Source: Yuukianura sp. NJ FZ-2021 (Eukaryota). Taken from it: a stretch of 64,000 nt of DNA. The stretch covers positions 2,976,001 to 3,040,000 of the forward strand of contig CM102288.1 of assembly GCA_046563655.1 (NCBI GenBank), given 5' to 3'. Shown here piece by piece: positions 1-26,438 of this stretch (the first letter of the stretch is position 1; each line of letters opens with the position of its first letter). The notes under the pieces were generated by a model. It was not told the DNA's origin and made no database searches. It was given only the letters and a program-made list of their open reading frames with translations. The position numbers were made by a program, and so were the translations under genes.

Positions 1-2264
1 ACCCTCTGTCCAAAACAGCAACGTCGCCAATCTCGAAAAGGTTTAGTATTTCTCCAGTCTTCATCATCGCTTGCAGGATTGAAGAATCGTTATTCCCGTT
101 ATCTGCTCCAAAGGGTCCTTCGCATTCAAGAATGTAGCCAGTACTTGTCACAACAGTCATAAACTTGACCAAATGACGTAGCTTTTGCAGGGAGTAGAGC
201 AGCCTTTGGTCCTTATGATCTGCAGGACGTTGTATGTAAAAGTAAGTGCCGTCCAAAATCACAATCAAAACGTCATCGTCTTGCTGGAGAAGACTTTGGA
301 ATGACTTTATGGTGTGCTGAGAAATGATTTCCTCCCTCGATTTGTGGTGATACCCAAGGAATTTCGGAACGAAGTTCTCTTCCAATGCTTTCGCTGCTGC
401 CGTGATGGTGTCGCTAACGATGGAGTTATTTAGAATTCCGAACATAAATCCGAGCAATTTCAAGCTCAAATTCAGCCTCATCTTCATCAGCAACATGGCG
501 ATTCCGTTTCGTTTTGTACGATTTTTGCTGGCCTTGAATCCATGTGCGTAAGACATGAGCTGGTCAAAGTTTTCCCTCGAAATTCCAAGCAACAGTTTGT
601 AGTCATCCGTAGACAACTCCGACGATATCTCGAAGTCTACTCGGAGCTTCTTCAATGAAATTGAGCTGGTCAAAGAATGAATCCATTTAGAAAGAGCCTC
701 AGGAGTAGTTTTGAAGTAATTCTTCATTGGCTTGATTAGTTGTAGAGCTTCTTCGTTCAGTCTGGAGTACTGTAGATGATCACCACAACATCTATTAGTC
801 GCAGGGATTACAATTCTGTTCTTCTTCCAAGCGTCTTGAATGGCAGTCACTGGTACCCTCCTCCGCCCTTTTCGGTCGCCACATATGAAACAGCAGCGCT
901 GAGTTGAACGGCATGTCAAGACGGAAGGAAGACGGACAACACCAGAAAATGAGACATTGGCTGAGACGCTACATACGGAATTCCCCACCGACATTTGTGA
1001 CAACTGAGAGTTCAACTCCAAGGAAAAATCCGATGCTTGTGATTGGTCCATTTCAGAAGAGGAAGCGTCATAAGGTTTCTCAGTATGGAAACGGGGGCTT
1101 CGAACGACACTGTTGAAGTGGTTCCCTGTTGAAACATTTCAGAAACAAAAAATCAAAACGGACTTCAAAGAAAAAAAACCAAGAAGCGTAAAGGCCATAA
1201 AAGTACGCTTACCGTTATGGTAGGATAAACGCACTTCGGTGTTGTCGTCAATCAGGTCATCTTCAAAAGCGATCTTCAAAGGCTCTACATTCAACTGATG
1301 AACGACAACAGCAAGTTTTTTCCACCGACTGAACGCCACAATCGCATCATTGCCACCCCAAGTTCCCCACGTAGACATTTTCTCCACTACAAATAGTAAG
1401 ACGTATTTGATCATCAGTATATTATAACTGCAACAGATTTTCATTGTTTCAATTCTAACCGTATTTGTCGAACGGAACTGAAGCATCCTCCAAGAAAGGT
1501 TCGAAGTCGTCTCGGTGTTCACCAATGAACTCTGCGACAGCTTTACGATATGCGATATGGTTTTCTTCTGTTCCGTCAAGTTGATGGGAGAACGCTCGGA
1601 AAAGACAGTTCCCATCGCCGATTATTTTGTGGACGGTTAGTCCGAGAGGAGCCAATTGTTGATTGAGAAGTTCTACCGAGTCCCGGGTAGGAAGCGATGG
1701 TACTTGAGCAAGGTCATCAGGGTTCAAAGGCAAGTCAGAGGGATGTTCCAGAGGAGTCCGTGGTACTTGAGCAGAGTCGTCAACGTTCAATGGCTGGCCA
1801 GAGGGAATTTCCAGAGGAGTCCGTGGTACTTGAGCAGAGTCGTCAACGTTCATTGGCTGGCCAGAGGGAATTTCCAGAGGAGTCCGTGGTACTTGAGCAG
1901 AGTCGTCAACGTTCATTGGCTGGCCAGAGGGAATTTCCAGAGGAGTCCGTGGTACTTGAGCAGAGTCGTCAACGTTCATTGGCTGGCCAGAGGGAATTTC
2001 CAGAGGAGTCCGTGGTACTTGAGCAGGGTCATCAACGGTTGTGTTCAGTCCATGAGAGGAATCCAATGGGAGCCGTGATACAGAAGCCGTGTCGTCAACA
2101 TCATTGTTCAGTTCAGTAACTTTCATCATACCCGAGGCACGCCTGAAACTTGCGAAGCATTTTGGACATAACCGGCGCAACTTCGATTCCATGTAGTAGG
2201 GTCGCTGTTTAGAAGATTGCCACCGGCTGCATCCGCACTTGCACTGGCAATTCCAGTTCACCAT
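1..2264 (-). CDS. OTU deubiquitinase-transposase fusion: Cys-rich N-terminus, 21-aa repeats, OTUD3-like domain, C2CH finger, HTH and DDE domain; 3' end off-window
   Basis: Exons 2264-1460, 1386-1213 and 1125-1, with GT-AG phase-1 introns at 1387-1459 and 1126-1212. Translation gives GDGNCLFRA..FEPFLED..FDKY|VEKMSTWGTWGGNDAIVAF..SYHN|GNHFNSVVR, then CFIC..RCCGDHL, MLLMKMRLNLSLKLLGFMFGI, FVPKFLG, VILDGTYFYIQ, YSLQKLRHLVKF, GPFGADNGNNDSSIL and GDVAVLDRG, with no stop codon. Confidence 0.85.
1697..2040 (-). repeat. Coding tandem repeat, 63-bp unit (VDDSAQVPRTPLEIPSGQPMN), about 5.5 copies
   Basis: TTGAGCAGAGTCGTCAACG recurs at 1767, 1830, 1893 and 1956; the flanking copies are degenerate. Confidence 0.97.
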
Positions 2265-3372
2265 TTTCAGGCTTAACAATGCTATAACTGAGTTAACTGA
2301 AAAACTAATCTAATGCTGAATACGCTAAATAAAATGAACAAATCTCAATTGATTTTTAAATAAATCGTATAAAAATGACCTCAATGAACTCCAAACTTCG
2401 AATTTCAAATGAAAAAATCAACTACTAACCAACAATATCATATCAATCAGAAAGCTTTTAATTTATTTTTCAATATAAATAAACTTCCTTCATCAAACGG
2501 TTGCCATGGCATCTTCTGCAGAATTTGTGAAAAAAATGCTCTAAAACCCAAAGATCTGCAAAAGTCGGGCCAGGAATTGACCATGTTGGGTACCGAGCAA
2601 CATTACAAAAATTTTGGACAACATTCTCAAGAGGGTCATTAACATCGTGTCCAAATTTGATAATGTTGCTCCATCCCCAACTTCCATTTTTTCCGGGGCC
2701 CAGAAATCGCTCAAACACGAAACTGTCCTTTGTGTGCAGAAAAATAAGACATCAACAAAAAGTTTTCGTCGTGGCAGAATTTGTCCACCGTGAAATTGTT
2801 TTGGTTCCACCATGATTGTTGTGGAGGTCAAGGGAAAGTGTCCACCATTTCATGCAGATCCAAATGTCACTCTCATCGTTTTGGTTTCGGAAGAGTGACA
2901 GTGACTGACCTCCATACGTGTCTAGCCGTTGGACGTCCGAATTGACAACCATCTATCGACCATTGTCTCTTCAAAGATTCACTTTCTCACAGTCTTTGTT
3001 TGGAACAAGCCAAGGTCACTCTATTTCTGATCTCTTGGACCCAATTTTCGAAATTTCGAAATCCTTTCAAAAAGAAAACCTTTTGAACTTTTGAAGGTGA
3101 AGTGAAAGTGTTTCAAATTTGAATAGTCTGCTGACCAATGCACAAGTGTATTGCCAACGAGCCTTTTTGCTTTTAGCACAACATCCTAGAAATGTGTCAA
3201 TTTGGCAATTATTGGCAGCAGGATTAACCACAGAGACACAAAACCAAACCGTGTGCAAAAATTAGTAGAGCATTGGCAAAATTGCTTGCAAAAATTTGGC
3301 CAAGCCTGAAACAAAAGTTTCCGTACTGTTCCTAAACATAAGCAAAAGTTTTCTTAACTTTTTGTGGTTCAA

Positions 3373-5261
3373 ATGTCAAAGGTTATTGGAATGACCTCGA
3401 CCGGAGGTCACGGTGAAAGTGACAACAAGGAGATGGGTAACTCGGCTCTTCAAATGCCCTACCCTGAAGAATTTTACAAAAGATCAAAACGAAACACACT
3501 TCCATCAAATGTCGCCATTCCAGTGGGATTGGCTCAGGTAAATTTTGAAAATTTTTTCTTTGGATTTTGAAAATATGAAAATTCAGAAGAAAAGTCTAAA
3601 ATAGACTTTCTTTTTCCTTTTCCATTTTTTTTTTTTGCTAATATGAATAACTTTTGAAATAAATTAAACTGCTTATAATAACTAATTGCAGGGAAACTGA
3701 AAACTGCAATTTGCGAAAAACTGCAAAACTGAACCGTTGCAATTAAGTAACCTTGAGCCCAATTTCCCCTTCAGCTTCAATTTCAACTTGCAATTTACAA
3801 TTCGCAAATTGCAATTTGGAATTTGCGAAAAACTTAAAACCACAAATCCAAACAGGATTAGAATCTTAATGGCTGAATTCCTTGCAGATTTTCAGAGCGT
3901 GACTATTTATGAGCCCGCATGTATGACCACAAAACTTTTGTGTCCTCAATTAGTTAACTTAACTTTAATCTTGTTCCTAACTCCAACAGTTACCTAACTA
4001 AACATATAATCTAACATACATTTTATTAATTAGGTTTTCATTGGAGTGTCCATGGTCATCTGTGGAAGTTTGGCTCTCCGTTATCGCAGTTACTTATTCT
4101 ACTATGGAACTGGGCTGTGGGCCGGCACAATTTCTGGCATCACTGGAGCCCTGATGGTGATGGCAACAAAAGAAGGGCTACCGAAACCAAGGTGGCTATG
4201 CGGTGGCAAAAAGTGGCAAATCCATGTCGTCATTGCAGCCACAATGCTGGCTCTGACAGCTTCCGTCCTTATGTCAATTTTTTCAACCTCAGGTTTAATG
4301 CAAGATACAATGCATCCTGTTGGCGTAGTAAGAAAAAGAATCTAAAAGTCTGAAATTCCTGCTTTTTGAAATTTAAAATTTTGAATTTTTGAAAATTTAG
4401 GACATAGGAACGCCCACAAGAGATGAAGAGACTTTTGAAAAACGGAAATCCTCTGGAGTCGTTATCAATGCAATTCTGCTTTTACTGGCAATGCTGGAAA
4501 TACTGCTCAGCTTTTGTTCACTGGGAATCGGACTCCGAGTGCTTTGTCGATCCACATCGGGGAGTTCCCTCTTTTCCGCCGATTCGGCGGGTAGTGAAGT
4601 GACGATCCATGACATTCTTGGATCCGGTCCAGAATATGAAGCTCGCAAAGACCGTCTTCTACGTTGGCTTGGACATCAACGCAGAAACTTCTTTATGAAT
4701 CCAACTTATACGCAGCCGCAAATTCAAATTCAAAGTCAACTTAAATCAGGCGTTCCCGTTCCCCCTGGGGCCATTTCCTCTCCGAACATTTCTTGTTCCA
4801 CCATTTCCGGAAGAACGAGAGGGCGAACCCACTTGGTGGCTCTGAAGCCACCACAACAGCTTCTCATTCCACACCTCCCCCAAGGTCATCCTCAAGGTCA
4901 CCCTATCTACTACCAACATGACACAAGGTCATACCCGTACCCTGTCATGGTTCCAGTTCCGTTGTGTCCCGCTCCAGTAAGGAGATCAGTGACGCCTATG
5001 TCGGGACAGGTCAAGAGCAAGCGCAGAAGGAAGGACCAGAGAAGCGGAAGTCATGGAAGCATGAGCAGTGGGAGCAAAGGAAGCAAGAGATCAAGTCGCT
5101 CAAATGGAACTCACAGGAGACAGTTGAGAAGCAAAGGTCAAGGTCATCCAGAGGTCAAAGTTCATAAGGAAATAACAGAAGAGGAAATTGGCAGAACTTA
5201 TACTGGATTGGATAGAATTGTGGCTGAGAATTTCATTAGTAACTCCATGGACAAATATTGA
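3373..5261 (+). CDS. CD20/MS4A-like four-pass membrane protein with a long Pro/Ser/basic C-terminal tail
   Basis: Exons 3373-3537, 4034-4327 and 4401-5261, all phase 0 with GT-AG boundaries. GLAQ|VFIGVSMVICG..YYGTGLWAGTISGITG pattern and four hydrophobic segments. Confidence 0.7.
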
Positions 5262-6080
5262 GCTCACGATGTGTTGCTCTGAAAAAAAGAAACTTAATGA
5301 GCGTAGCGTTTTGAAACAAATTGCCAAATTAATTAAGATTTTATTTCATAGTTTCTTACTTTTTGTAAAACTAGAGTTATCTAAAAATACGCGAGTTCAC
5401 AAAAAGTAAAATACGTTTTTTAATATAGTAATTTGAAAAAAAAATACTAGAAAAGTCCCTTCGATTTTTACTTTTTTAAAGAATTTTTGTATGAACCGTT
5501 TCTTTGAATTATTGCGTGAAAATTTGACAAAGGCTCAATGACCTTTGCAGATACTGATAAACAACTGAAAGTCGATGGTGAATTTTTCACAACTTAATTC
5601 ATCTGTGCAAATAGTTATAAAAAGTAAGGTTCTTGTTTGTGGTTAAACTGGAGAGGTTATTTACAACATTTTTTTTTCAAATTCGGTTCAGGTCTAGTGA
5701 AATTGAAATTATTTTCAAAAATTCCGGACATTTATTTTAGTTCATAAAAATTATAGTAATTTGTATAAAGTAAAATGACTACCAAAATGAAAAACAAAAG
5801 TTTCAAGTTTCTCATCCTAGTACAACGACGCTAAAAAGTTCAATGGTTTCACTCACTCCACTTCAACGACCTAACGTAAATGAAAAAAAAATAGTACGTG
5901 CCAGAAATTAATATCAATCAGAATAAAAATTTTGCCATAAGTCTTTGCAAAATTTAGTTGGTATTTTTAGCATTTTCTGAACTTTTTTTTGCGTTCTAAC
6001 AAAGCGTTTTTGGAAATTACTATTGTTCTAACTGTTCAAACCGTAATTTTTTTGCAATTCGGGTTTCGGGAAAAATCAAA

Positions 6081-7246
6081 ATGGTAGATATGATTAGAAA
6101 TTTCGGTAAGCAACGATTCTGCCTCGAAATCCTTCTATTCCTGCTACTCGTTTTTACTTTTTTGATTTGGCTGAATCAGCGTTCCATGGTGGTACTTTTT
6201 AGTTCGGATGAAGAAAGTGGCAGAGGTGAGAGCTTCATTTCATTTTAATAAAGTATTGGAATACAATAAATACATTTAATATATAATATTAAAACAGCCC
6301 CTCAGGACGAATTGATCAACGAATTCCTTGCGTCTAATCCACCCAGAGACGCTGGAATCATTTCGTATTTGCACGAATTTCATCTTGAACCTCCCTCAGC
6401 CAAACCATACAAATTTACACCAATTAAAGACGAACACCCATCCGAGTTCCTGTACATTTTGCGCCAATTATTTGGACAACAGGTAATTCCAAAAAATATT
6501 TCTGAATTTTCATTTTATAAGATTTCAAAATTTCAAAACTTTTTCAGACAAATGGTTTCTTCGTTGAAGCTGGAGCCAACGATGGTCAACTTTTGTCCAA
6601 CACTCTTTGGTTGGAAATGGAACAAAACTGGACTGGACTTCTGGTTGAACCGAATTCGTTTATGCTTCCTACTCTGCGATTGGTCAACCGAAAAGCTTGG
6701 ATTGCCGACGTCTGCTTGTCTACCGTTCCATATCCCGTTAAGGTAACCACCGTAACCACCATGTAGTAACCATCACATAACACTTCTATTCAATAGGTTC
6801 GGTTCACTCATAATATTCAAACACACCCCTGGAACAGCGGACAAGGTTACATTGAGAAATCAGCATTTCGTGACCTTGACAATTACGTTTTCGCGGGAGC
6901 CGTAGACTGTTTTCCACTTGCGACACTTTTGACTGCGTTGAATCAGACGGTAGTGGACTACTTTAGCCTGGATATCGAAGGAGTCGAGCTAAAAGTACTC
7001 AAGACTATTCCATTTGACAAAATTACAATTAAGGTAGTTTCAAAATTTTGAATTAGAATTTTCGAAATTACTAATCTTGTAATTCCTCCGCAGGTCATTT
7101 CGATCGAACATAATTTGATTCCAGAAGGATTCGAAGCTCTAAAGGACCTGCTTGATACTAATGGTTTCGAAATTGTTTTCAAAAGTGACGGAGACTTATT
7201 CGCAGTTCATAAAGATTATACTAAAACATACAAACTAAGTAACTAA
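6081..7246 (+). CDS. Star-like FkbM (Methyltransf_21) type II membrane protein, copy 1
   Basis: Five exons. N-terminal TM helix, then GFFVEAGANDGQLLSNTLWLE..WTGLLVEPN and CFPLATLLTALNQTVVDYFSLDIEGVELKVLKTIPFDK. Confidence 0.9.
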
Positions 7247-7573
7247 ATTAGTTGAAAGTAAAGTCTTTAATTCAACACTTTAATAAAATTAAACATTAAA
7301 ATAATGTCTTATTGTCCCAAAAATTTTTCCGGTTTAATGGGGCAAGCGGAGATTTTGGGCAAAAATGTCTTCGAATTTTGCCCGTCAGCTGGAGGCCTTG
7401 GCACTGTTAACGGTTTTTTTTTAACTTAGTACTTAAGTAAGCAGGCCCCAACAAAGAATTCTTTCGTTTCAAAACAGAAGGTCTCTTTCAACGGCATCCA
7501 CTTTCACGATTTTTTTGAAATTCTGTTCGAAATCCAGCGGTTTTCTGAAATTTGGGTTTGAGAATTCGTCAAA

Positions 7574-8829
7574 ATGGCTGACTTATTTCGAAATTTTGGC
7601 GCGCCTGGGCTGTACCGCCAAATCATTCCGATCGTTTTCCTCCTCTCCGCCATCTTGTTTTGGCTCAGTCTCCGTTTGGTTGTGTTCTCCAGCGACAAAA
7701 CAGTTCAGAGTGGTGAGAGTTACATTATACTTTACTATATTAGATAAATATTTATGTTTAAAATGTATTTATATTATATTACTGTTAAATCAGGATCGCA
7801 TAATGATGTGGTACATGTAGTTCGTGACCATTCTTACATGTACCCATATCGGAAGCAGATGACCAAGCAGTTCCTGATGCTGAATCCACCACAAGTCGGA
7901 GTAAACTTAATCATTTCCTACTTGCATAAGTTTCATCTTCAACCGCCTTCAACCAAACCATACAAAACGGAACCAACTAAAGGATCTGAGTATACCAACA
8001 TTTTGAAGCAACTGTTTGGAAATCGTGTAAGAACAAACGTTTTCGAAAATTTTGTGTCCATTTTTTGAAAATTTGACAAATTTTGAAAATTTTTGTTGTA
8101 GACGAATGGATTTTTCGTTGAAGCTGGAGCTAACGATGGCCAGTATTTGTCCAATACTCTTTGGCTCGAAATGGAACAAAACTGGACTGGACTTCTGATT
8201 GAGCCCAATTCGTTTTTAGTTCCGGCTCTGCGATTGGTCAACCGAAAAGCCTGGATTGCGGACGTCTGCTTGTCCCCAGTTCCATATCCCATCAAGGTAA
8301 CCACCGTAACCACTTTGTAGAGTAACCGTCCAATAACTTATTTTGTAACCATCTCATATTCTCATACTTTAGGTTCGTTTCACCCACAATGTTGGGAAGT
8401 ATGATTGGAACAATGGACAAGGGTTCATCGAGAAAACGGCGAAGCGAGACGCGGATTCGCGAATTTTTGCGGGCGCAGTAGACTGCTTTCCACTTGCGAC
8501 ACTTTTGGCTGCCATAAATCAAACAGAAGTGGACTACTTTAGTCTGGATATTGAAGGAGTTGAGTACAAAGTACTCGAACATTTTCCATTTGACAAAATT
8601 CTTATCAAGGTAATTCGAAATTTAAAAAAAAAAATGATGATTTTTTTCAAAATTTTGAATTCTGCGCGTTTCATCTTAGGTCATGTCGGTTGAGTACAAT
8701 TTGATTCCTGAAAAATTCCCACGTCTGAAGCGTCTCCTCACTGCAGCTGGCTATGAAATTGTTTTCCAAGATGGTCATGAGTTGTTTGCAGTTCACAAAA
8801 ATTACTCAAATGTCTACAAACTAAACTAA
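7574..8829 (+). CDS. Star-like FkbM methyltransferase-domain protein, copy 2
   Basis: Same five-exon layout. GFFVEAGANDGQYLSNTLWLE and VDYFSLDIEGVEYKVLEHFPFDK; TAA at 8827-8829. Confidence 0.9.
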
Positions 8830-22506: not shown

Positions 22507-24530
22507 TTACCATTCGGTTTCATTAATTTCACTTTTGCGTTTGACGGTCACGGAGTCCTTGACCTCTGTAATAATTTTGGCCAGGATGAGCAGTATACCG
22601 TGGTCCAAATCCACTTGCTTCTCTAGCACTTCCAACTCATATGTCGCCCCAAGAGCTTCTCCTGCAAATTCGTCCGGGTCAACGAATTCTAAAACCGAAA
22701 AACATCGGTCATTTACGAAACTTTTTTCAGCAATACAAGAAGCACAGCAAATAAAACTATTTGAAACGCTTACCATCAAATTCTCTGAAAATTTGGACAA
22801 AAGCAGTTCGTGGAGGTACGCTAGCTGTGAGTGATCCCATTTTGCGTAACTGAAGAACCGGAACATCTCGGGTCTCGCCTTTATCCACATCATGAGCCTT
22901 CACGGTAACAGTATGCATGGCTTTGGTGTAATGTGGAAGTGGTTCTGGCAGTTCAACGGGAGTCAGAAGCTTGACCCTGACATTGGTCTTGTCCTTGTCA
23001 CTTGTCTTGACCCGGAAGAAGTTGCCGTCCCAGAGACATCCGCACGAGAACTCAAGCAAGTAGTTGCCTAAAACCAAGTAAAAACACATTAGAGATTAAC
23101 TTAACCCAACAATTCTTACTCCACTGACCTTTGACCAGCTTCGGAAGTGGAACGGGGTCAAGAGGTTGAACGTAGAAAGAGTTGCTGGAAAAAACTGACG
23201 TGACATGTCCGAAAAAGCGGGTTCCTCTGTCCAGGGTGAAGATTCTCTGAGCTCCTTTGCCCCAATTCTGACCGTTGTACGCCATCTTCCAGTTGGCTAG
23301 ACTCGAAAATAGTCTTTTTCGAAACATATGATCAAGCCCGGGTTCTTCTGGACGACTATTCTGTTGATTCATGATTGCTTGATTGTAATTGAACGAGGTG
23401 GATCCCAACGGTTCAAAGATTTCTGCGACAGCAGTAGAACTGTGCCGCGGCGGTTCGGCAATTTCGACCGTGACTTGTACCTGGCTGTAGATTGTGTTTG
23501 CAAACGTTCCGTCTGGAAATCCATCCACTCCATTCAGCGTGACTTCAAGTGCTAACGGTGGAATGCTGGTGATAGCCGGGTAACGTGGAAGTGTCTTCAT
23601 GATTCGCAGTGGATAGTCCTTGTCATAGACCATTCTGACTCCCGTGTCAATGAACGTGACGATAACATCGGACCAAGGTTGACTTGCCTTATCCGTCACA
23701 GGTTTGATGGTACACCGTTCAAATGTGTCGGGGTTTTCAAATAGTCCGAGATAAACTGTATCTTGTTCGAAATCCCTAAGGATTCGGATGACATCTTTGG
23801 ACGTTAATCGGGCCAGACTGAGGTATCGATTGACATGTTGGACCAAAGGGGTGTTGATTTGGACAGAGAGAGATCCGATGTGCTCAGCTGTGATGAGACT
23901 GTTTGGCCAGTAGAGATGTTTCTGGATGAGCAGCCTCGGATCATATGCGGCATAGAGATAGTTTAGTATGATTTGGTTAACAGTTGTGTTCCGGTAAGTG
24001 TCGGAGTGGCAGATTATGGTAGGAATGACCCCTGTCTTGATCACAGTCACCTTGAGGTCACTCTTCCAGTCAATTTCGTATTGGAGAATATGGCGGAGGT
24101 GGAAAGCAGAAGCAAATGCTGAGAGTCCCTTCAACTTGCAAGTGATGATCCGATGTTCGAAGAATGTCCACTGCTGATCCATGGCGAAAATGAGCGAAAT
24201 GTGAACGGCAGTGACCGTACCGACGTCGGGCAGGAAGACCTTGGCCATGTTAACACGCAAAACGGCCTTGACGATTGCTCTCCGGTAATGATCTTCGTGG
24301 AAAACGATGCATTTGAGACCAGGGTAGACATCTTCGACTGGTAGAGGGCGACGGCTGAAATCTGTTACTTTCTGGATCTGGTCATGGAGAACTCGGTACT
24401 TATTGTTAATCATGGGGTCACACAAGGTCAGCTTAATATGATGATATGGCCCAGTGAATTGGGGCACATCGGCCAAGGTCACGGCCATGACCTCTCCTAG
24501 CTTGCATCCAGGGTCAAAGGGATTCTCCAT
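22507..24530 (-). CDS. Multi-Tudor domain protein (three degenerate Tudor units)
   Basis: Exons 24530-23120, 23067-22774 and 22688-22507. Unit 1: PGLKCIVFHEDHYRRAIV..VFLPDVG. Unit 2: FERCTI..VIVTFIDTG..IPPLALEVTL. Unit 3: GHVTSVFSSNSFYVQ..CGCLWDGNFFRV..HDVDKGETRDVPVLQLR. Confidence 0.75.
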
Positions 24531-26438
24531 CTTATCCTAAAAAACATAATAAGTTAATCAAGATCCTTTCAACATAGTTAATTGATAGTGTGAACCTTAG
24601 TACTTACCACGCGGGAGGTCACTCGAGGTCAAGTTTGTGTAAAAATTCTGCAGAGATCCGTTTTTTTTTAACTTGATGAATCGAGTTCGAACTGAAGATA
24701 CAAACTGTGCAAAAACAAGCAGCAAAGCAAAAGCCTAGGTTAGTAAACTTTACCTTAGGCATTGCAAAACCTGTAAAAAAAAGTAATTTACAAAAATTTG
24801 CATTTTATATTTTCAGCAAAAGCAATTTCCACATTTGACAAAAATTATAGCATTCTTGAGTTACAAAATTTTTATCATGCTCATAAGGAAGCAGCAACGC
24901 CAATTTGAATTTTGCCGCTAGAAACATTTTGATAGAAATCTTTTTGTAGCGTCTGTACACCTAATCGGTATGAAATGTGAGAAGCTAAAAACCAAAAAAA
25001 ATCTGAAAATGAAGTCCAAATTTTTTGCTTTCCAATTCAATTTGAATTTTAATTACTCTTCTAATTACTAGTCATTATATGGAAATTTGTTCGTTTGCAA
25101 ACCTATGTTCTTGAAATCCTACAGTTTTACAGTTTTTTAATTTATGTATTTCCAAGTTCGTTATTTACGAGACTGTCAGCGTCCAATTTCAAAATTTTAA
25201 TGAACCAGGAACATGGTACAGGAAACCTAAAAAATTTGGGATCCTGTTGCCTGCCTCTGTCTAGCTTCATTTCGATCTCATCCTGCTCATTTCCGTTTCC
25301 AATTTTCCATTTTAGCATAATTTAGATTCTGAATGAAGAGAAAGTAGTGAAAGCAGTGAAGTATCTAACGCAAATGAGCATTACTAAGAACGAAACCAAA
25401 TGAAATCGTTATTTTCTATCTTTTTTTTCGTTTTTGTTCAAGATACAAAGAACTGTGTGCTCGGAGGTTCCATTTTTCCGCTTTCTGTAAATGTAATTTA
25501 CGAATTTCTCATCTCTTCATACCCCAGATCAGCTTTTTCTTTTGCTGTATCAATTTCAAATCCTCCCTTTTGTCATCACCTTCAAAAGAAAATTCAATTC
25601 CAACATCATTCACAGTTTATAAGAAAGAAAATGTCCAAGAAAGACTTTTTGTCACTTCAAAAAGCTTACTTTTCACACACACAAAAATTCTATGCTTTTT
25701 GGATTATTTGAGCGGTCAAATTCGAAATTGACCTGAACAGAAAAGCCTTTCGGCCATTTTTTTTTGGGTTTTTGAAAAGGAGTTCATTAGGAAGTGAAAG
25801 TAAAGTGAATTTAGAGGAACCCGCCGTGTTTTCTCTCAAAAAGAGAGAAAAGAAAAGTTCTTGTCACATTCAATTCATTGTCTCGCTTCTTCCCTGCAAA
25901 AGTGAGTGGTGTCCAGTGGTTCGATTCCAGTTTGCGGGGACACTTTTTGTTGGAAGTGAAAGTGCTAAATGTCATTTCGAAGAGGATATGAGATTTCTTT
26001 CATCATTTTTCCATTGACTTTTTTTGACCAATTCCAAATCCTTGTGGATTAGACCACGGAAAGAAAATAGCTCAATCTAACCACCAAAACCGCAAAGATC
26101 CCAATCCTGTCTTCCGGCACTTTCACCACAACTACTCTATCAATATCTATCAAAATCAACTTGACCTCGTGACCTGTTCCATGACAGCATAGGACAAATG
26201 TTAAATCTTAAACAAAATCTAGCTTAAACTAACATAACTAAGGTTAGATAGATCATGGATGACCAAAATTTACGTTTTCCATGCGCTAATTCTGAAAATT
26301 TTTATTAAGTCATTCTCGAATTTTATTAAACACATCTTTTAACTTGCGTTTTTGACACAGAAGTTGCTATACTGCATGTTGATAATTGCAAATTTTAACA
26401 AAAGTGAACTTTGACCTAACTTGGGCTTCTATTTTTTC

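Follow-up and report, generated by a model that had tools for sequence, protein, structure and literature searches.

At one edge of the window, i.e. the whole 64-kb stretch of Yuukianura sp. NJ FZ-2021 DNA that was analysed, an OTU-type deubiquitinase domain and a DDE transposase are encoded next to each other on the minus strand, which raises the question of whether a mobile element here carries its own deubiquitinase. The initial annotation had proposed that two canonical phase-1 introns rebuild one uninterrupted frame, and the three exons (2264-1460, 1386-1213 and 1125-1, minus strand) do join to 2104 nt, or 701 codons, with zero stops, in a frame still open at window base 1; read in the sequence, every coordinate it gave is correct, for the ATG, both introns and the Cys, His and DDE codons. 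Without splicing, exon 1 reads into a stop two codons inside intron 1, and the open frame of exon 3 starts no earlier than 1138. Fifteen codons 5' of the ATG there is a stop in the same frame. Given that the spliced OTU domain aligns with ten OTUD3 orthologues with no indel at either junction, the GT/AG pairs at the junctions are unlikely to have arisen by chance, and the prediction that two phase-1 GT-AG introns join the OTU domain in frame to the transposase is supported. The predicted gene is laid out as follows.

2265..2716, minus strand: 5' non-coding stretch, from the element terminus to the ATG
2264-2262, minus strand: start ATG
1460..2264, minus strand: exon 1, 268 codons + 1 base, with the N-terminal Cys-rich module, the repeat array (21 residues per unit) and the OTU domain's first third including Asp217 and Cys220
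2142..2249, minus strand: N-terminal Cys-rich module, CxCxCxC ... CxxC, residues 6-41
1698..2037, minus strand: tandem repeat within the coding sequence, 5.4 copies of a 63-nt unit (21 residues), 94% matches, also seen in self-BLAST
1616-1614, minus strand: Asp217 codon
1605..1607, minus strand: catalytic Cys220 codon (GDGNC), from the alignment with OTUD3 orthologues
1387..1459, minus strand: predicted intron 1, 73 nt, GT..AG, phase 1
1213..1386, minus strand: exon 2, middle of the OTU domain with the GNDAIVAF loop
1126..1212, minus strand: predicted intron 2, 87 nt, GT..AG, phase 1
1..1125, minus strand: exon 3, running off the window edge, with the OTU His box, then ~60 residues of linker, followed by C2CH finger, HTH and the DDE core to its second Asp
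1118..1120, minus strand: catalytic His329 codon (GNHFNSV), from the alignment with OTUD3 orthologues
776..892, minus strand: C2CH zinc finger, C-x2-C-x31-C-x2-H, from the transposase-family alignment
374..502, minus strand: HTH_Tnp_4 DNA-binding motif (Pfam), residues 208-250 of exon 3
2..256, minus strand: DDE_Tnp_4 catalytic core, first part (Pfam), Asp codons 253-251 and 10-8

The protease had been described as an intact OTUD3-like domain with its Cys in exon 1 and a WGGNDAIVAF loop in exon 2, and the database matches and the kept catalytic triad bear this out. Pfam OTU (PF02338) matches exon 1 alone (E 1.3e-7, 32.6 bits against a curated cut-off of 23.3), and the top PDB match of exon 1 and of exon 2, queried separately, is in both cases the OTUD3 OTU domain 4bou (E 1.3e-15 and 2.2e-5, respectively), the values for exon 1 against OTUD1 and OTUD5 being 3e-5 and 1.9e-3. 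The OTU piece of exon 1 is 49-61% identical to 94 proteins, of which those with names are mostly OTUD3. Once spliced, the domain is colinear with OTUD3 at 41-49% identity over about 146-148 columns, the ubiquitin-site loop is conserved, and D217, C220 and H329 fall in the same columns as in the ten orthologues. By these comparisons the domain is of the OTUD3 type, closer to OTUD3 than to other OTU subfamilies. As also claimed at the outset, the His box and the transposase share one exon, the His codon of GNHFNSV (1120-1118) lying within exon 3.

The likeness to host OTUD3 thus consists of the colinear OTU core, the Asp/Cys/His triad and the best PDB match. It stops ~12 residues past the His box, where the transposase begins, and none of the ~200 further residues that follow the OTU domain in OTUD3 orthologues is present. 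Because the OTUD3 C-terminal region is absent and a transposase stands in its place, the window gene is considered to contain an OTUD3-derived domain, the OTU core only, and not to be an OTUD3 orthologue. In an OTU tree the window domain sits on a very long branch (4.76), in a polytomy with animal OTUD3 and has no supported sister; the underlying alignment of 378 columns is not confined to the OTU domain, and since trimming did not limit it to OTU columns no origin is drawn from this tree.

The transposase half was likewise read correctly from the start as an HTH followed by DDE residues. Pfam identifies HTH_Tnp_4 in exon 3 at E 1.8e-6 (27.9 bits, cut-off 27) and DDE_Tnp_4 at E 2.8e-5 (24.2 bits, cut-off 24.8), the latter domain being clipped by the window edge. 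The spacing is D(80)D, with the second Asp the last in the window and the catalytic Glu beyond base 1, and 13 relatives of the transposase show D(80-88)D(47-50)E. Upstream of the HTH, the finger residues C78, C81, C113 and H116 are nearly invariant (in at least 90% of the 14 rows of alignment A1). Pfam THAP does not match this finger of exon 3 at E <= 1, nor any of 49 relatives at E <= 0.001, which qualifies the earlier remark on THAP partners in this group, although the C2CH finger itself is conserved across the family. The Cys-rich module at the N-terminus resembles a pattern present in 5/75 relatives with a long N-terminus vs 1/3750 shuffles, a pattern that was written after the sequences had been seen. 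One related metagenome locus, L039, encodes a transposase with the same Cys module and the same C2CH finger. Searches with the N-terminal 60 and 200 residues against 248 proteins, 154 homologues included, gave nothing significant. A similarity of the first 11 residues to the start of the relatives' C-terminal SWIM-like motif was rejected as too weak (best E 0.009, against a very small database).

Where the element begins can be read on the 5' side of the gene, and the features of this end are given below.

1..2728, minus strand: transposon portion within the window, from the 5' terminus to the second DDE Asp, with the remainder and the 3' end beyond base 1
2717..2728, minus strand: element terminal bases GGACAGTTTCGT, which begin with GGA, common to Spy termini
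2729..2731, no strand assigned: flank, TTT in plus-strand reading and AAA in that of the gene, presumably one half of the AAA|TTT site that Spy targets
Visible end, minus strand: terminal sequence GGACAGTTTCG, of which an inverted copy is expected at the 3' end

The gene strand at 2729|2728 reads AAA|GGAC, the flank being CACAAA directly ahead of GGAC, and no AT adjoins the terminus. According to the available part of the description of Spy transposons (Han et al. 2014, PMC4122938), these elements insert at AAA|TTT without target duplication and have GGA termini, with a 'relatively well conserved' terminal consensus, GGANNNNG. The terminus in the window, GGACAGTT, has the GGA and fits this consensus at 7/8 positions, the eighth base being T, not G. 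As the flanking AAA directly abuts the GGA terminus, there is no space for a target duplication at the visible end. Public contigs break at exactly this point (2728|2729): those matching exactly end at 2732, and flank contigs match from 2729. Two of the latter (X1 record 5 and X2 record 12) match from 2729 rightwards only, each leaving 801 letters to the left of it unmatched, and they are a putative candidate for the empty site. One exact contig extends 371 nt beyond window base 1. The 20-base terminal sequence has a single occurrence in the window, and Rfam has no match there. Since all OTU exons lie downstream of the terminus at 2728, the element encloses the OTU domain, not the other way round.

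Inverted ends were sought in 80 related metagenome loci, among which clean AAA|...|TTT ends were seen in L039 only. This relative is a complete 3,954-bp element, AAA|GGACCCTATCCG ... inverted copy|TTT, whose terminus also begins GGAC and is without the eighth G. Two other loci, L050, which also gave a match, and L057, were discarded as elements with inverted ends, their matched arms being symmetric about the contig centre and looking like fold-back assemblies.

Compared with known transposons, the window element is most readily set beside Spy, of which an active member, cgSpy, has been described (PMC11304231). The two share a transposase of the DDE_Tnp_4 type in which the HTH is N-terminal, a D(80)D spacing and, at the one visible end, the AAA abutting a GGA terminus; there is no second gene in 1-2728, and the AAA|inverted ends|TTT arrangement is shared by way of L039. 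The Spy spacing given in the available part of PMC4122938 is D(79-80)D(44-62)E, and most Spy transposases are described there without a zinc finger. The D(80)D fits Spy, though it does not set Spy apart from ISL2EU. Unlike Spy, the window gene has an OTUD3-type domain, an array of 21-residue repeats and two predicted introns, its family has a conserved C2CH finger, and its eighth terminal base is T, not G. ISL2EU, the sister group of Spy, has a C2CH-type zinc finger, HTH and DDE, and termini that start with GG, and it duplicates the AT of its A|AT|T target site (PMC4482050). The window element shares with it the combination of finger, HTH and DDE and the GG terminus, but differs in the AAA directly before GGA without an AT duplication, in the finger that Pfam THAP does not match, and in that no YqaJ gene is seen in 1-2728, the 3' part lying beyond the window.

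Zisupton has been named, as a further type of element beside Helitrons and Ginger, as carrying OTU or Ulp1 protease cargo. That OTU proteases travel in Helitron/Helentron and Ginger elements, as the initial annotation had stated, agrees with PMC11417382, PMC9741609 and PMC2836005, at least in the extracts available of them. Ginger1 transposases are described in such an extract as having a C-terminal OTU or Ulp1 domain, and so combine, like the window gene, a cut-and-paste DDE transposase and an OTU cysteine protease in one protein, with introns in some families (PMC2836005); the Ginger1 transposase is however integrase-like and not DDE_Tnp_4, and its OTU is C-terminal where that of the window gene is N-terminal. 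Helitrons and Helentrons have captured deubiquitinase domains (OTU, VTD) more than once and with the catalytic residues kept, but they encode a rolling-circle RepHel and not a DDE cut-and-paste enzyme (PMC11417382, PMC9741609). A Trichomonas vaginalis protein, known here by its description as cited in an extract of PMC2836005, joins an IS5-like transposase (pfam01609), of a kind related to IS5 and PHIS, to a Peptidase C19 ubiquitin hydrolase, which is of the USP class and not OTU, and in a protist.

Within the transposase family itself no comparable fusion was found. An OTU domain is present in 0/154 homologous proteins, by Pfam in 0/49 relatives and in 0/80 related metagenome loci, and no relative carries one, which indicates that the family in general can transpose without OTU. 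No longer fused relative was found among 4434 candidates, which is weak evidence. The literature search returned no report of OTU with ISL2EU or with a Spy transposon, and the word 'OTU' has no occurrences in PMC4482050 or in PMC11304231. In an atlas search, which provides leads only, exon 1 returned OTU clusters exclusively, with scores up to 0.76, and exon 3 returned DDE_Tnp_4 sets, some with THAP and none with OTU; clusters combining THAP, HTH_Tnp_4 and DDE_Tnp_4 are near neighbours at 0.85-0.88. Transposon-borne deubiquitinases are therefore known from Ginger1 and Helitrons, and an OTU in Spy, or in PHIS elements more broadly, reads as not found before, consistent with the suggestion first made for this locus that the fusion is new for the group.

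Within the 64 kb, neither self-BLAST with 1-6000 as query nor tblastn of the joined protein gave a second copy. Further copies were looked for in contigs from four runs, three of which are of one sample, possibly the source of the window, and several that keep OTU exons are 80-92% identical. All four runs contain a copy, ~82% identical, that matches 48-916 and 1257-1393 (OTU exon 2) on one contig, and other contigs, 81-90% identical, extend over exon 2, intron 1 and also exon 1. Among the latter, one has a codon-aligned 33-nt deletion of codons 185-195. One contig has a net 32-nt loss at 1055-1089, which indicates that some copies are probably broken. The 39 listed differences in 83-497 fall 27 times on the third codon position, 11 times on the first and once on the second, where 13 each would be expected, and this third-position bias shows the pattern that purifying selection would leave. 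Contigs of the element in the source sample have a depth of 121-136 and those of the flank 29-43, and the element appears low-copy there. In run X5 (organism B, a close relative) the flank has a depth of about 5, 2137-2670 a depth of 0 and the diverged copy a depth of 417, values that are suggestive only, contig depth not being a copy number.

Taken together, 1-2728 (minus strand) probably represents the 5'-most two thirds of a PHIS transposon of the Spy type, whose transposase gene would hold the captured core of a host OTUD3-type gene and two introns. The catalytic core would have been taken up from the host gene, with two of its introns, into the transposase gene, where it would now occupy the linker between what is apparently an N-terminal Cys-rich module native to the transposase and the C2CH finger, HTH and DDE core. 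Removal of the two phase-1 introns would yield one protein, with an Asp-Cys-His OTU site ahead of the transposase. An unlikely alternative is that the OTU exons are passenger DNA, i.e. a young in-frame capture of a gene fragment that has no role in transposition and is perhaps not even spliced into the transposase mRNA. Such a fragment would be in keeping with a family that works without OTU (none in the 154 proteins or the 80 loci) and with an element that appears low-copy by contig depth (121-136, flank 29-43), but it fits poorly with a 701-codon open frame in which both introns keep GT..AG and phase, with the conservation of the catalytic Asp, Cys and His and of the ubiquitin-site loop, and with OTU exons that persist in contigs only 80-90% identical, one deletion (33 nt) being codon-aligned and not a frameshift. 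A neutral fragment is disfavoured because the divergence exceeds what it should survive with an intact frame.

The initial annotation had also asked whether the locus is a mobile element or a domesticated single-copy gene. The Spy-type terminus at 2728, the diverged copies that keep OTU and the insertion left uncovered in the relative's run favour a mobile element. An immobile OTU-transposase chimera kept for a cellular function could account for the lack of a second copy in the 64-kb window, would be equally suited by the third-position bias that suggests purifying selection, and gains from the visible part ending at base 1, with the 3' end and second terminus beyond the window; it is nevertheless very unlikely in view of the Spy-type terminus with its AAA flank exactly at the contig break, the several diverged copies within one sample, and organism B, in which the flank is covered and the insertion is not, and the diverged copy, by a contig depth that is suggestive only, stands at 417 against about 5. 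It is scarcely credible that a Spy element simply landed in a host OTUD3 gene to give an accidental read-through frame. The linker from the His box to the first transposase-like residues, ~60 residues, is short enough to be open by chance, yet the terminus lies upstream of all OTU exons, diverged copies hold OTU exon 2 beside the transposase, the Cys-rich module, like some relatives' N-termini, sits upstream of OTU in the same exon, and the ~200 residues that should follow the OTU domain of OTUD3 are missing.

If the locus is indeed a Spy-type transposon with a captured OTUD3-type core, two roles can be envisaged for the protease, which are not mutually exclusive. One possibility is that the OTU domain strips ubiquitin in cis off the transposase, which would then escape proteasomal turnover; it may, just as plausibly, trim ubiquitin on chromatin or repair factors at the excision or insertion site. 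That the domain shields the transposase or opposes silencing, as first suggested for this locus, is pure inference. OTUD3 is reported to prefer K6 and K11 chains, and K6 chains have been linked to DNA damage. We tentatively propose, as a somewhat doubtful extension, that the OTUD3-type domain could be an active deubiquitinase required by the element in its host, removing K6/K11-type ubiquitin from the transposase or from chromatin or repair factors at the cut site. Comparable ideas have been put forward for other elements: the Ginger1 study proposed, in the extract available, a role of the ubiquitin pathway in transposition (PMC2836005), and guarding of the transposition proteins from the proteasome was proposed for Helitrons and Helentrons (PMC11417382, PMC9741609). 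The OTU domains of transposons have, according to PMC9741609, never been assayed.

Were this proposal true, the element would be the first cut-and-paste member of PHIS to counter ubiquitin-based host control by an enzyme of its own, and would represent, beside Ginger1 and Helitrons, another independent convergence of DNA transposons on deubiquitination. An independent capture of an OTUD3-type core with its introns by a Spy element would strengthen the view of ubiquitin as a general lever in the conflict between transposon and host, and the locus would provide a clean example of exon capture into a transposase coding region. In human cells, Spy transposases are active without any host-specific factor (PMC11304231), so what a built-in deubiquitinase does to the stability of the transposase and to its rate of transposition is directly measurable.

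The candidate gene occupies the minus strand, and its three coding stretches are predicted to be joined across two short introns as follows.

Predicted features of the OTU-transposase gene
2264-1460, minus: exon 1, ATG-opened frame; Pfam OTU, E 1.3e-7, 32.6 bits (cut-off 23.3)
1459-1387, minus: intron 1, 73 nt; GT 1459-1458, AG 1388-1387; codon cut after base 1
1386-1213, minus: exon 2, second coding stretch
1212-1126, minus: intron 2, 87 nt; GT 1212-1211, AG 1127-1126; codon cut after base 1
From 1125 past the window edge, minus: exon 3, third coding stretch; Pfam HTH_Tnp_4, E 1.8e-6, 27.9 bits (cut-off 27), and DDE_Tnp_4, E 2.8e-5, 24.2 bits (cut-off 24.8, the profile clipped by the window edge)

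Without splicing, the exon 1 frame is terminated two codons inside intron 1 and that of exon 3 is open from 1138 only, while the predicted join, made by coordinates, gives 2104 nt and 701 codons with no stop. The catalytic codons named in the initial annotation are confirmed at their positions, the OTU Cys at 1607-1605 and His at 1120-1118, and the transposase Asp codons at 253-251 and 10-8. The part of the element in the window stops short of its 3' third. Judged from sequence, a Spy-type element occupies the locus, and its transposase gene has, we infer, taken in the OTU core from a host gene of OTUD3 type. Capture would have occurred at the DNA level, with the host gene's introns carried along.

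The OTUD3 character of the domain is evident in both OTU exons, as the solved OTUD3 OTU domain (4bou) is the top structure for exon 1 (E 1.3e-15) and for exon 2 (E 2.2e-5) when each is searched alone, the OTUD1 and OTUD5 structures being far weaker matches. Over the OTU part of exon 1, identity to 94 proteins is 49-61%, and those that are named are mostly OTUD3, from liverwort, springtails, copepod and vertebrates. Aligned with 10 of these 94, the spliced OTU is colinear, with no indels at either junction, and the catalytic columns are filled by Asp217 and Cys220 (GDGNC) and His329 (GNHFNSV). The resemblance stops about 12 residues past the His box, and the window protein lacks OTUD3's long C-terminal region. 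In a tree the window OTU forms a very long branch amid animal OTUD3 proteins with no supported sister, and no origin of the domain was inferred from it.

Exon 3 encodes a member of a large transposase family, with 1467 relatives in the representative library at E <= 0.001 and 105 at E <= 1e-30; the closest among the matches listed, P0001, has 639 residues and is 53% identical. Alignment with 13 relatives reveals a nearly invariant C-x2-C-x31-C-x2-H finger, the HTH and the DDE core; full-length members also have a SWIM-like C-terminal motif (Pfam SWIM in 2 of 49 relatives scanned). The window has D(80)D, the relatives D(80-88)D(47-50)E. Spy elements are defined by insertion at AAA/TTT without target duplication, the terminal motif GGANNNNG, a D(79-80)D(44-62)E spacing and a single transposase gene with an HTH, the zinc finger mostly missing (PMC4122938). 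Their sister group ISL2EU has an AT duplication and a THAP transposase with a YqaJ gene (PMC4482050).

Contig evidence places the OTU exons within a mobile element. We compared public contigs from four runs with window positions 1-8000 at 80% likeness; three runs (X1-X3) are a single sample, organism A, possibly the source of the window, and the fourth (X5) is a different organism, B. An exact contig spans 1997-2732 and stops there. In two flank contigs (X1 record 5 and X2 record 12) the match starts at 2729 and extends rightwards only, and each has 801 extra letters that have no match in 1-8000. At this break the gene strand reads CACAAA, then GGACAGTTTCG. The AAA flank directly abuts the GGA-initial terminus, as in the Spy signature, and an AT duplication of the ISL2EU kind would not fit between them. 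At the eighth motif position T stands instead of G. A weak palindrome lies at 2585-2681 in the 5' non-coding part of the element (self-BLAST, 70.7% over 99 nt).

Among 80 metagenome loci encoding relatives, L039 holds a complete 3,954-bp element bounded by AAA and GGACCCTATCCG at one end and the inverted copy and TTT at the other. Its transposase shares the C2CH finger and has a Cys-rich module (C-x2-C ... C-x2-C) upstream of it. Window exon 1 likewise begins with a Cys-rich module (residues 6-41, 2142-2249; CxCxCxC ... CxxC), and, among 75 relatives whose N-terminus is long, 5 show the Cys pattern, devised post hoc from the sequences, versus 1 of 3750 shuffles. Between this module and the OTU domain lies a coding tandem repeat (1698-2037; 63 nt x 5.4 copies, 94% matches) of 21-residue units, whose number seems to vary among copies, as an X3 contig goes back 63 at 1762>1700. 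The presence of the Cys-rich module in the window, L039 and other relatives suggests an insertion of OTU core and repeats into the linker between possibly two native DNA-binding modules. The first 11 residues show a weak likeness to the beginning of the C-terminal SWIM-like motif in the family. In two further loci that encode related transposases, perfect inverted arms mirror each other about the contig centre (L050, 443-1757 with 5901-7215; L057, 115-134 with 5054-5073). Fold-back assembly may have produced these arms, or they may be very long inverted ends, and both loci were excluded from the inverted-end evidence.

Among the relatives searched, with the best 150 of 1467 representatives covered, the OTU domain is restricted to the lineage of the window element. 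It was found in none of 154 homologous proteins (local phmmer, E <= 10), in none of the 49 of these scanned by Pfam, nowhere in the 80 loci (270 kb; tblastn with the window domain and seven OTUD3 proteins, E <= 1) and in none of the family sets of Atlas neighbours. The literature searched yielded no paper joining either ISL2EU or Spy transposons with OTU, passages from some of the papers that mention both OTUD3 and transposons describe no such capture, and the term OTU is absent from PMC4482050 and PMC11304231.

Several diverged copies retain the OTU exons. One, at roughly 82% identity (151-152 differences over 869 bases), aligns with 48-916 in all four runs, and its contig also matches 1257-1393, in OTU exon 2; exon 2, intron 1 and exon 1 are spanned by X2 record 11 (81-85% identical) and by X1 record 3 (90%), the 90% identical contig lacking 1680-1712, exactly codons 185-195. 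By manual count, the 39 differences listed in 83-497 fall 27 at third, 11 at first and one at second codon positions. Some copies are probably broken, given a net loss of 32 nt in one contig. That the frame is open, that the catalytic residues are kept and that diverged copies still have OTU exons argues for use of the OTU domain by the element. The likeliest use would be to remove ubiquitin in cis, either from the transposase or from factors where transposition takes place.

Transposons carrying deubiquitinases have precedents. Ginger1 transposases have a C-terminal OTU or Ulp1 domain, Helitron proteins also have OTU domains, and a Trichomonas protein combines an IS5-like transposase with a C19 ubiquitin hydrolase; the authors proposed a role for the ubiquitin pathway in transposition (PMC2836005). 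Helitron-like elements have acquired OTU at least twice (PMC11417382), and Helentrons also carry VTD deubiquitinases, proposed to shield transposition proteins against the proteasome (PMC9741609). According to the same source, OTUD3 prefers K6 chains and also cuts K11, and assays of transposon OTU domains are lacking (PMC9741609).

As contig depth is not copy number, we took it only as a hint. In the presumed source sample element contigs have depth 121-136 versus 29-43 for single flank contigs; in organism B depth is 417 for the diverged copy, about 5 for the flank beyond 2849 (differences 1-6%) and 0 across 2137-2670. These depths suggest that organism A has a few copies and B many, and that the window's insertion is missing at the matching site of B. 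Flank contigs of X1-X3 differ by 3-10% from the window across 2729-6434, with two versions at near-equal depth (29 and 30) in 5183-6167, which points to high heterozygosity in the sample or to a duplicated flank.

Elsewhere in the window, Pfam assigns a Tudor domain (E 1.8e-9) to a 494-residue open frame (23052-24536, minus) and matches none of the 11 other long frames tested. Summed contig depth is very high in both organisms over three short flank stretches (4362-4398, 6520-6546 and 6947-7052), where loose ends are numerous. Contig joints jump 1.4-2.6 kb from one stretch to another, and the stretches look like termini of other repeated elements.
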